From assembly GCA_944331915.1 (NCBI GenBank), contig CALVIR010000002.1:7149-71148 (forward strand): a stretch of 64,000 bases of DNA, in the 5' to 3' direction. The notes under the pieces are model-generated. The model saw only the letters and a program-made list of their open reading frames with translations. It ran no database searches and was not told the DNA's origin. The DNA comes from an uncultured Bacilli bacterium. Its GTDB lineage: Bacteria > Bacillota_I > Bacilli_A > RF39 > UBA660. The translations under genes were made by a program, and so were the position numbers. Of the stretch, positions 15,869-17,749 are shown piece by piece (position 1 is the stretch's first letter; each line of letters begins with the position of its first letter).

Positions 15869-15884
15869 TAGTCCTTACGGACTA
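15869..15884 (-). promoter_or_regulatory. VR-proximal hairpin/cruciform with a GNRA-type loop
   Basis: On the minus strand: TAGTCC-GTAA-GGACTA, 6 nt 3' of the VR/TR homology end and overlapping the stop codon. Position and form match the hairpin that enhances retrohoming in characterised DGRs. It is absent from all TR-type cassettes. Confidence 0.6.
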
Positions 15885-17749
15885 GTCGCGCTCATCACGA
15901 GGCGGAACGAACCGTAAGTGCTAGCACCACCGAGAGAGCTAGCAGCGCTGAAGTAGAACACACCCGCATAAGTGGCAGAGTAATAGCCACCGCCGCGCAC
16001 AAACCATGGATACTCAGCACTTATCATGTTCTGTGCATCACTATACCATCCTGCGGTCTCACTTAAACCATGACTTAAACACTCACTTCCATTACATGCT
16101 TCTTTTATATTATCACTTGTATATTTATCATAATATTTTGCTTCAGGCATTTCTGTAAATCCGGAACTACCTATCGTATCATTGTAATTACCCATTACAT
16201 ATTCCCATGCTCCTCCACTCATATCATATACTCCATATATCGTTCCTGTGGTACTTGCTCCTACTCCTCTTCCTATCAATCCATTTTCATCTCTTACATT
16301 ATTATCATACTTATATTGACATCCATAATCTGTATTTGCATTAGAAGGTGATCCATAACTACATCCTGTTATATATTGATCACTCTTGTTCTGATATACC
16401 TCTTTATTAGCTCCTTTGAAATTCTCATTTCCTAATTTTCCATATCGACTTTGTGATAAATATGCTACAACTGCCCACTCACTATTCTTCATCGCATGAG
16501 AATTCATACTTTCACTAAAACCATATCTATTTCCTGTTGCACTTACCTTCGTCGCTACAGTATGTATATTACTTACATTTATATTTCTCCAACTCGTTAC
16601 ATTTGGTTTTATCATCGGATCTAAGCTTGTGTTATTGCTTCCTCCATAACTAGCAGAAGGATCACTACTACTTGTTTCAAACTTTCCTACCCATATTCCA
16701 CTTAACTCTTCTCCATCATAAGTAAACGCATCTGGAGTCCGATAGTTCTTTGGCGTTTCTGTTGCTATATATTTTGCATTTCCTGTATCTTTTTCATCAA
16801 CACCTATAAACTTAATATCTATCTCTCCTGGCCTTGATAATGTAGGAGTTGTATCTAAATATATTCCTTTTTTACCATAATAACTGGAACCTCCATTTTC
16901 ACTACCAATTGTATAACTATATCTTGGAATCCATACCCACATTGTTTCTATATCATCCATCTCAATTGTTGTTCCAACTGCTGCACTTTGGTATTCTGCT
17001 AACTTATCACTTTTTACTGTTACAGCATTAGCCCATATTCCCATATCATAATTATACCAATTATTATCTATATCTGTTTTTACCCAGTTATATCCATCAT
17101 GTTTTACTGCTATCATATTACTATCCATTACTGGAGCATTTACCTTATCTGTTCCTTGCTCAAAATCTGCATCTGCTACTTGTTGTGACGCAAAAACTTT
17201 TAGTTGACCTAAAAATACTTTACCCATAGATTCCGTAGTAGCATTTATATTAAGCCAAACTCTAAGCTCACACTCTATCTCTTCATCAGCATTAATTATT
17301 CCATAACTCATTATATATGAATCAGATAATGTTCCTGTAAATGTTCTATCTCCCATTTTTAATTCATATCTTACATCTCTACCATCTAAAAGTTCACATG
17401 CTCCACCATCAGTGGTTTGACAATTACTTAAAGCTTCTTCATCATCTACTAATGATAACGTAAAATATAAAGGAATAGTACTATTATTTTTTAATGAAAA
17501 TGTATATGGTTCTCCTTGTCTACCTTCATCATCATAAGTTGGAATTGTATTTACCAACTGTATCCCTTCATTAGTTTCATTTAAAACAAGTTCGATATCT
17601 CCTACTACTATCTGTACATCTTTTTCACCGTAAATGATTGTATTTAACCAAGCATAAGAAATACCTACTACTACAATTAAAAGTATTACACTAAGAATAA
17701 TTATAACTTTCTTTTTATTATTCTTAATTGTATCCATAATTTTTGTCAT
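15875..17749 (-). CDS. DGR target protein: N-terminal signal-anchor plus TasA/camelysin-like domain, with a C-terminal FGE-sulfatase/C-type-lectin-fold variable domain
   Basis: 624 aa. TM/SipW-like signal VIIILSVILLIVVVGISYAWL. The N-domain is homologous to the 56.5-59.3 kb paralogs. The C-terminus has GGAWEYVMGNY and WFVRGGGYY..SFRLVM, typical of FGE-type DGR targets. The VR forms the last ~40 codons. Confidence 0.85.
   Translation of the reverse strand: MTKIMDTIKNNKKKVIIILSVILLIVVVGISYAWLNTIIYGEKDVQIVVGDIELVLNETNEGIQLVNTIPTYDDEGRQGEPYTFSLKNNSTIPLYFTLSLVDDEEALSNCQTTDGGACELLDGRDVRYELKMGDRTFTGTLSDSYIMSYGIINADEEIECELRVWLNINATTESMGKVFLGQLKVFASQQVADADFEQGTDKVNAPVMDSNMIAVKHDGYNWVKTDIDNNWYNYDMGIWANAVTVKSDKLAEYQSAAVGTTIEMDDIETMWVWIPRYSYTIGSENGGSSYYGKKGIYLDTTPTLSRPGEIDIKFIGVDEKDTGNAKYIATETPKNYRTPDAFTYDGEELSGIWVGKFETSSSDPSASYGGSNNTSLDPMIKPNVTSWRNINVSNIHTVATKVSATGNRYGFSESMNSHAMKNSEWAVVAYLSQSRYGKLGNENFKGANKEVYQNKSDQYITGCSYGSPSNANTDYGCQYKYDNNVRDENGLIGRGVGASTTGTIYGVYDMSGGAWEYVMGNYNDTIGSSGFTEMPEAKYYDKYTSDNIKEACNGSECLSHGLSETAGWYSDAQNMISAEYPWFVRGGGYYSATYAGVFYFSAASSLGGASTYGSFRLVMSATSP
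15891..15999 (-). repeat. DGR variable repeat (VR)
   Basis: 109 nt, aligned without gaps to 18028-18136. There are 15 mismatches, and every one falls where the TR has A on the coding strand. 12 codons are changed. The VR core has zero Asn codons against 10 in the TR. Confidence 0.9.

Follow-up and report, generated by a model that had tools for sequence, protein, structure and literature searches.

An N-terminal domain shared by a diversified retroelement target and the small proteins of a SipW operon in uncultured gut Bacilli

Chromosomal targets of diversity-generating retroelements (DGRs) are mostly 'hypothetical' proteins, and their cellular location is seldom established; to our knowledge, the tip of the Bacteroides type V pilus is the one appendage for which the action of a DGR has been worked out. 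The DGR considered here lies in a stretch of 64,000 nucleotides from an uncultured Bacilli bacterium (contig CALVIR010000002.1), which was analyzed as a whole and is referred to below as the window. Its target is a 624-aa protein (15875..17749, minus strand), and the same window contains, 37.5 kb away, an operon encoding a SipW-type signal peptidase (SPase) together with several small proteins, among them p180, p229 and p151. The target is best explained as a modular surface protein that combines a SipW-cognate signal peptide with an N-terminal domain of the same family as the operon's small proteins, and the analysis suggests a variable binding domain mounted on a TasA-like surface fiber. The domain, a beta-sandwich that together with a conserved N-terminal segment comprises about 160 residues in the target, had no earlier name and is called N-dom here.

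The TasA/TapA/SipW system of Bacillus subtilis (CalY, or camelysin, in B. cereus; PF12389) resembles this locus in several features. As here, a dedicated archaeal/endoplasmic reticulum (ER)-type SPase is encoded in an operon with its substrates. The signal ends with [ST]-aromatic-Ala↓Ala-Phe (the arrow marks cleavage), followed by a T-G-T-[IL] strand, as in the N-dom family, and the subunit is a beta-sandwich whose N-terminal segment becomes free only after cleavage. The donor strand of TasA comprises residues 28-38 (PMC9674648). According to PMC10269814, TasA has Phe at P2', such sites are cleaved inefficiently by E. coli LepB, and in B. subtilis TasA is cleaved by the dedicated SipW. The differences are also clear: N-dom has no PF12389 match in the window and no profile similarity to TasA beyond about 60 residues, the operon partners are not TapA but p180, p229 and p151, the subunit is present as 2-7 tandem paralogs, and many proteins carry the subunit module as a fusion with large cargo domains.

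Two other systems are relevant. The BsaA/BsaB/BsaC-SipW matrix operon of Clostridium perfringens (PMC11580942) likewise joins SipW with several TasA-related subunits; its BsaC is a large protein with a SipW signal and an adhesive domain (vWA), the oligomers stay membrane-anchored, and the donor strand of BsaA is locked by an isopeptide triad, N35-E56-K74. In the archaeal bundling pili AbpA/AbpB (7UEG; PMC9245690) the larger second protein, AbpB, has been suggested to present adhesin domains on a filament of the donor-strand type, but the archaeal operon, unlike the one described here, has no dedicated SipW.

The closest functional precedent is the tip of Bacteroides type V pili (bioRxiv 10.1101/2024.11.15.621889), of which the target is an analogue, not a member. 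The layout is the same, with an N-terminal pilin-type assembly module, a C-terminal lectin-fold variable region (VR), a chromosomal DGR and a gut commensal host. The chemistry of assembly, however, is not related: type V pili rely on a lipobox Cys within a lipoprotein signal, on the FimA/Mfa fold and on the outer membrane, whereas the target, coming from a Bacillota lineage, has no Cys before residue 110 and no Pfam pilin or Mfa match, and so does not qualify as a type V tip. Moreover, in 41 Bacteroides DGRs borne by integrative and conjugative elements the anchor and stalk genes are immediately followed by the tip gene (bioRxiv 10.1101/2024.11.15.621889), whereas the target is 37.5 kb from the SipW cluster. 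Adhesins that are diversified by a DGR and carried on an assembly module of the appendage type are already known in kind, while the module and the operon appear to be new. In particular, the N-dom family and its SipW operon appear to be undescribed so far; a full-text search of the literature returned no paper in which 'diversity-generating retroelement' and 'TasA' occur together, and the literature on TasA-like or SipW-dependent adhesins and donor strands yielded only the known work on TasA, TapA, BsaA, AbpA and cannulae.

The target and its N-terminal domain

The open reading frame (ORF) of the target encodes a signal peptide, N-dom and a cargo of about 430 aa ending in the VR. The 108-nt core of the VR (15891..15998, minus strand) occupies the last ~36 codons and encodes RGGGYYSATYAGVFYFSAASSLGGASTYGSFRLVM; its cognate template repeat (TR; 18028..18135, minus strand), AAC-rich with 27 A, is not found between avd and the target but on the upstream side of the target gene. 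All 15 mismatches between TR and VR over the core (15/15) are at TR adenines (A>G 7, A>T 6, A>C 2). Strain L079, 97% identical to the window over 9 kb, has an identical TR, and its VR differs from that of the window by 12 nucleotides, 12/12 at TR-A positions. As the mismatches are confined to TR adenines, and the L079 VR differs only at TR-A positions, the target is a real, currently active DGR target. No reverse transcriptase (RT) was found within 8-10 kb of target homologs at 63-68% identity.

Residues 1-33 of the target (17651..17749, minus strand) have a Lys-rich n-region, an h-region of ~17-18 residues and the c-region G-I-S-Y-A, with predicted cleavage A33↓W34, and are followed by the conserved N-terminal segment and the beta-sandwich that constitute N-dom (residues 34-~192; 17174..17650, minus strand). 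The initial annotation, made from the sequence alone, had aligned the first ~190 residues of the target with four tandem paralogs at 56515-59271 and with the 180-aa protein at 55229-55771, here p180. BLASTP, hhalign, hidden Markov model (HMM) searches and shuffling bear this homology out; the five motif pairs quoted in support of it are all in register in the BLASTP, hhalign and MAFFT alignments, and its coordinates are all correct, the '38 kb' between the two loci being 37.5 kb.

The target, the paralogs and p180 share a homologous N-terminal domain. BLASTP aligns residues 1-243 of the target with the paralog at 57244-57852 (40 bits, E 7e-9) and residues 12-191 with p180 (E 6e-5), and the profile of the four paralogs matches the target over 172 columns in hhalign (probability 96%, E 3.6e-9). 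An HMM built solely from 84 stand-alone members of the family gives the target 65 bits (E 6e-19), p180 70 bits and the window paralogs 261-271 bits. Structure prediction agrees, since the same strand order is found for the target N-terminus and a paralog in two independent AlphaFold2 (AF2) runs, where 58 of the 69 positions in target strands fall on strands of the paralog model (predicted local distance difference test, pLDDT, 62-78 for target residues 80-190).

The pairwise identity of the target with the paralogs and p180 is just 22-26%, which would be compatible with purely compositional similarity, that is, with a hydrophobic signal peptide and low-complexity beta-rich sequence evolved without common descent. 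When the signal peptide (residues 1-36) was kept and the rest of the target shuffled, the best of 2000 shuffles scored 33 bits versus 70.5 bits for the real sequence, and thus the homology reaches past the hydrophobic signal. Moreover, a bridge between the canonical and the target-type N-dom is provided by locus L072, where two tandem target-like genes (6591-10465), one with the canonical, paralog-type N-dom and the other with the target-type variant, encode proteins 51% identical over the whole length. The shuffles, the hhalign probability, the agreement of strand patterns between independent models and the L072 pair together refute common composition as the explanation, and we consider it extremely improbable. 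In the L072 pair, the gene with the canonical N-dom is missing its final ~57 residues, the VR among them, and the one with the target-type N-dom has the full VR-like end.

No N-dom protein of the window matches any Pfam or NCBIfam family, although the family is large: at E<=1e-3 a profile of the six window copies retrieved no fewer than 6446 cluster representatives, of which 3877 reached E<=1e-10. Of the 150 representatives listed, almost all have the match starting no later than about residue 20. Among the 149 listed sequences that were retrieved, 79 are stand-alone proteins of ~200 aa, 17 have 261-400 aa, and 53 are longer than 400 aa, reaching 1743 aa. The hallmark of the family is an N-terminal signal, the conserved segment and a beta-sandwich ending with Y-R-L-R-M-W ... 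V-Y-G, and the same arrangement is seen in the target.

The cargo domains identified in the C-terminal extensions of 58 N-dom fusions are of kinds typical for adhesins or surface proteins, namely Big_2 (10), LRR_5 of the BspA type (7), DUF6273 (5), DUF285 (4), Flg_new (4), ALK_LTK_GRD (2), Laminin_G_3 (1) and F5/8 type C (1). Proteins with the target-type, FGE-like cargo form one of the fusion classes, and in L072 such cargo is found on a canonical N-dom as well. These observations support N-dom as a lineage-wide, general N-terminal adaptor for adhesin-type cargo in Candidatus Onthousia and its relatives, where this unannotated module and the accompanying SipW operon appear to organize much of the adhesin repertoire of an uncultured gut lineage. 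Homologs of the target itself number over 3900, each of the 120 best having ~620 aa, and the locus offers a concrete, testable placement for this large DGR-associated lectin-like family in gut Bacillota.

The target cargo may end in a domain of the FGE/C-type-lectin-like type, as judged from a sub-threshold signal. Residues 472-549 (16103..16336, minus strand) match the FGE-sulfatase family, which has the C-type-lectin fold, at E 0.011 (Pfam PF03781), and PF03781 is the sole recurrent cargo family of target homologs (31 of 61, best E 9e-4, below the Pfam cutoff). PDB sequence searches with the target and with the target-family profile gave nothing meaningful. The target resembles the TvpA-type DGR proteins, which have the FGE-sulfatase/C-type-lectin fold, in the VR within the last ~36 codons, ending ...G-S-F-R-L-V, in the AAC-rich TR and in the recurrent sub-threshold PF03781 match; it differs from them in that this match is under the Pfam cutoff, there is no PDB profile match, and the fold is not modelled by AF2.

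The SipW operon and the signal type

The operon is encoded on the minus strand, and its first four genes, recognized as ORFs and with the N-dom HMM, are the paralogs: paralog 1 (58636..59271, 211 aa), the first gene of the cluster, paralog 2 (57887..58501, 204 aa), paralog 3 (57244..57852, 202 aa), the one with the AF2 model, and paralog 4 (56515..57150, 211 aa). They are followed by the SipW-type (archaeal/ER-type) signal peptidase I (55768..56499), by the divergent N-dom protein p180 (55229..55771), whose gene overlaps sipW by 4 nt, by the conserved single-pass membrane protein p229 (54543..55232), with a 4-nt overlap with p180, and by the last gene of the cluster, starting 1 nt after p229, that encodes the conserved polytopic membrane protein p151 (54086..54541). 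The assignment of the peptidase next to the paralogs to the SipW type, made in the initial annotation, holds: it is a true SipW/archaeal-type SPase I with 94.9 bits in TIGR02228, above the cutoff of 51.85. In the SipW equivalog model NF046067 it has E 8e-29, under that model's 190-bit cutoff. The SPSMVP, THRI and KGDNNNT boxes, which we take to be the catalytic boxes of the peptidase, are kept in 55 SipW orthologs.

In a survey of one genome per species with ORF and HMM annotation, 74 loci were returned, all of them from metagenome-assembled genomes (MAGs) of uncultured gut Bacilli or 'Tenericutes', from Candidatus Onthousia species and from Clostridium sp. CAG:451. About 55 of these loci share the operon, which consists of 2-7 stand-alone N-dom paralogs, sipW, p180, p229 and p151; p180 directly follows sipW in 58 loci, and p229 is present in 55, being nearly always 229 aa long. 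Pfam and NCBIfam searches gave no match for p229, and Pfam none for p151; neither protein shows similarity to N-dom or TasA or has detectable relatives, and given this lack of similarity a TapA-like role is not assignable to them. In one locus (L050) a 1120-aa fusion of N-dom with Big_2 is encoded inside the SipW operon (2133-5495), and the MAG of this locus has at least 8 further N-dom fusions on other contigs, plus one cluster.

Terminator-like hairpins are situated after the first and the third paralog genes of the window (58572-58599 and 57213-57234, minus strand), and terminator-like sites in the region number six, with 1.1 expected. Such hairpins would fit a higher expression of a major subunit.

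The signal type is common to the target and the paralogs, as had been initially proposed. In the paralogs and fusions the cleavage-site motif is G-x-S-[FY]-A↓A-F, with Ala at -1 in 89-100% of the sequences, and in the target family it is G-x-S-Y-A↓W-L, with Ala at -1 in 97%. The site frequencies in 120 target homologs are G 93%, S 81%, Y 95%, A 97%, W 96% and L 97%, and Ser or Thr occupies position -3 in 96%. The aligned site of p180 is T-S-[FI]-L-W-Y, with Leu in position -1 in 74% of the sequences; p180 and its orthologs (58 loci) have neither the A↓A-F site nor the T-G-T-I motif, their consensus being ...T-S-f-L-W-Y-R-F-F-Y. Judging by this sequence, p180 may remain anchored in the membrane and form the base of the assembly. 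A conserved Ser two residues before the aligned site could serve as an alternative -1 residue, and cleavage there is possible.

The likeness of the N-dom proteins to TasA and camelysin, which had been suggested for both the signal peptide and the strand pattern, holds for the first ~60 residues, that is, the signal peptide, the site and T-G-T-[IL], and is not seen for the beta-sandwich core (hhalign E 0.48) or with the PF12389 model. The TasA site is G-T-W-A↓A-F, and the target site is aligned to A27↓A28 of TasA through the paralog profile. In hhalign the A-A-F motifs of the N-dom family and TasA are paired, as is the following T-G-T-[IL] strand; the full profiles align over 61 columns (E 4.8e-4), and the N-terminal profiles with E 3.6e-6 and probability 87%. 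Consistent with this, matches of a TasA-family HMM in N-dom members are mostly at about residues 5-65 and score 12-16 bits. No window protein matches PF12389 (Peptidase_M73) at E<=1, and in the wider family this model matches 3 of 84 stand-alone members (best E 0.0048) and 1 of 58 fusions (7.9e-5). NCBIfam TasA matches 5 of the 84 stand-alone members (best 1.3e-3), and TIGR04088 gives faint matches to 4 of them (best 0.07). N-dom may thus be described as having a TasA-type, SipW-cognate N-terminus, and it is not filed as a TasA-family member, because the likeness is confined to ~60 N-terminal residues.

Possible assembly and display of the target

In the AF2 model of the paralog at 57244-57852 (pLDDT 76.8), a signal or transmembrane helix occupies residues 6-35 and an eight-stranded beta-sandwich residues 59-201, while for the segment 34-51 the pLDDT in the monomer is below 50. 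This post-cleavage segment is the most conserved stretch of N-dom, with N42 in 100% of the sequences, T46 and G47 in 98% each, Y53 in 98% and E55 in 92%; further downstream, K74 is conserved in 70%. N-dom fusions with unrelated cargo retain the invariant residues of the segment. In the target family the corresponding segment is strongly conserved too, and its alignment runs collinearly with no gap between the cleavage site and P-x-x-D-x-x-G. A segment that is conserved and yet not placed in a monomer model would be donor-strand-like in behavior, resembling in this the donor strand of TasA (PMC9674648).

In the mechanism that we propose, the target would be exported by the Sec pathway and cleaved by the operon-encoded SipW after S-Y-A33 (A33↓W34). 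Its N-dom would then become part of a polymer or layer that the stand-alone paralogs make up, probably by TasA-like strand complementation through the conserved post-cleavage segment, with p180, p229 and p151 acting as putative membrane-proximal anchor or assembly factors. The ~430-residue cargo with its FGE/C-type-lectin-like end would point outward, and the adjacent DGR, rewriting it at ~15 adenine-templated positions, would vary the ligand specificity. We infer the cleavage by SipW, the polymerization, the co-assembly and the roles of p180, p229 and p151, and regard the whole chain, from export through cleavage and attachment to the paralog polymer or layer to the outward display of the diversified cargo, as an evenly balanced proposition.

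Assembly beyond mere export is favored, because the post-cleavage segment is the best conserved one and yet is unplaced by the AF2 monomer, because fusions with unrelated cargo keep its residues, because the subunit paralogs are in tandem with a terminator-like hairpin after the first gene, and because the L050 fusion lies inside the operon. The opposite possibility is that N-dom is a SipW-dependent secretion signal with a generic beta-sandwich spacer, so that the paralogs form a structure or coat of their own, and the target and the fusions are released or independently surface-associated with no co-polymerization. The divergence of the target segment exactly at the most conserved positions of the paralogs (N42 to V/I, T46 to V, Y53 to L), the absence of linkage between the target and the cluster, the dispersal of most fusions in the genome and the resemblance of the core fold to just generic jelly-roll and CBM-like domains all agree with it. 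On the other hand, a passive spacer would not need the full invariant set of a monomer-disordered segment, which the fusions with unrelated cargo retain, one fusion is encoded inside the operon (L050), and the target family's own segment is strongly conserved, collinear and gap-free. In our estimate this alternative is a rather unlikely one.

Alternatively, the signal could stay uncleaved, in which case the helix would remain in the membrane, N-dom would be a membrane-proximal pedestal for the variable lectin-like domain at the cell surface, and SipW would process some members only. The h-region is indeed long (~17-18 residues), the helix in the AF2 model runs continuously through the putative site, and p180, without Ala at -1, may itself be an anchor. 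However, Ala at -1 (97%) and Ser or Thr at -3 (96%) are preserved in the target family, the site is collinear with that of TasA, and a dedicated SPase is encoded in the operon of the family; we consider such a signal-anchor quite improbable.

Several observations weigh against co-assembly of the target with a TasA-like polymer. The position of N42 is occupied in the target family by Val (85%) or Ile (9%), T46 is replaced by V, and Y53 by L; given the loss of Asn, the N-terminal segment of the target may not engage the partner of the paralogs. In relatives the target and the SipW cluster are likewise unlinked, lying ~90 kb apart in two assemblies of ~1.52 Mb. The comparison of the N-dom beta-sandwich core with the TasA core in hhalign is negative (E 0.48), although this is weak evidence, as the TasA profile is Bacillaceae-only. 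The Foldseek search of the PDB with the paralog model yields no match better than E 1e-3, the matches being jelly-roll or CBM-type sandwiches. Since the N-dom core is not demonstrably TasA-like, polymerization by analogy is weakly grounded. The AF2 model of the full-length target is poor (pLDDT 39.5), leaving the cargo fold and the domain arrangement unmodelled. Finally, the window covers 64 kb of the genome, and other signal peptidases are possible elsewhere.

In the same Foldseek search the archaeal pilin 7UEG, the only TasA-superfamily structure among the top matches, takes rank 3 with probability 0.95, the match being weak (E 2e-3, TM 0.29-0.32), FimG takes rank 49, and TasA entries are outside the top 50. 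PDB sequence searches with the paralog profile and with the broad family profile gave nothing meaningful.

The conserved N42, E55 and K74 recall the N35-E56-K74 triad of BsaA. This is a residue pattern set beside the description of BsaA, and an isopeptide lock of this kind in N-dom is a lead only. The target family, unlike BsaA, lacks the Asn and keeps E (93%) and K (95%) in the positions of E55 and K74. Going by these residues, the target could be a strand acceptor only, that is, a chain-end subunit; equally, the loss of Asn could mean no co-assembly at all, which counts against the proposed attachment. Taken together, one may imagine a SipW-dependent pilus-like system in which N-dom polymerizes by strand complementation, maybe locked by an Asn-Glu-Lys isopeptide, and serves as a universal adhesin socket with dozens of copies per genome, the target being a chain-end hypervariable adhesin that keeps E55/K74 without the donor Asn. 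We put this combined scheme forward tentatively and consider it doubtful as a whole.

If co-assembly does take place, TasA-type matrix fibers would be programmable adhesive scaffolds, beyond purely structural ones, and if the target is a chain-end subunit, it would represent, in a monoderm, the equivalent of the type V pilus tips that DGRs diversify in Bacteroides.

Retroelement components and genomic surroundings

The avd and RT genes are downstream of the target on the same strand. The accessory protein Avd (12198..12554, minus strand) matches Pfam bAvd with E 1.6e-21 (77 bits, cutoff 40), and the RT (11149..12213, minus strand), whose gene overlaps avd, matches RVT_1 with E 1e-17.

The DGR has multiple TRs (12572-15580 and 18028-18135, minus strand), as four further AAC-rich TR-like cassettes are situated between the target and avd, with cores at 15113-15214, 14784-14894, 13052-13150 and 12722-12829 (minus strand). 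Each of them belongs to a unit of ~330 nt that includes a conserved spacer of ~200 nt; the spacer recurs between the cognate TR and the target (17878-18000). None of the four matches the VR of the window without indels, and all four are kept in strain L079; they may serve as templates for targets in other parts of the genome. A gene of an AAA_14/DUF4143 ATPase (13233-14561, minus strand) is inserted in the middle of the cassette array, in the same place in L079.

The genomic surroundings of the target are housekeeping genes, and no tblastn match was found for it in 50,697 phage records, and the reading of the target as a prophage or tail-fiber gene was rejected on these grounds. The element is flanked on the TR/target side by a pair of Amidoligase_2 and GGACT (gamma-glutamyl cyclotransferase-like) genes (18274-20583, plus strand), and on the RT side by a papain-like protease, Peptidase_C39_2/C70 (9836-11128, minus strand); both adjoin the DGR in strain L079 too.

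The SipW operon is inserted in a conserved Bacillus-type gene block, metG-tatD-yabE (3D domain)-[operon]-ksgA-yabG (52145-62660 of the window). The presence of the sporulation protease YabG hints at a spore-former. We considered whether the 3D-domain protein p206 (59357-59977) might open the cell wall for the system but rejected it, as it takes the yabE position of the synteny block and, moreover, is absent upstream of the cluster in several loci.

In a relative with 68% identity (locus L075) the target homolog is adjacent to a 624-aa type IV prepilin-like protein (10895-12769) with the N_methyl motif KGFTLIELL, and two small pseudopilin genes are found nearby (334-1487); the 624-aa neighbor, being prepilin-like and unrelated in sequence, was rejected as a relative of the target.

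Just downstream of the target in the window there is a VR-like relic (15452-15543, minus strand), degenerate, A-poor and T-rich, that retains both anchors (GCGCGGCGGT ... TTCGTTCCGCCTCGTGATGAG) and the VR-type 3' flank, and a comparable relic follows the target homolog of L075 (about 10225).

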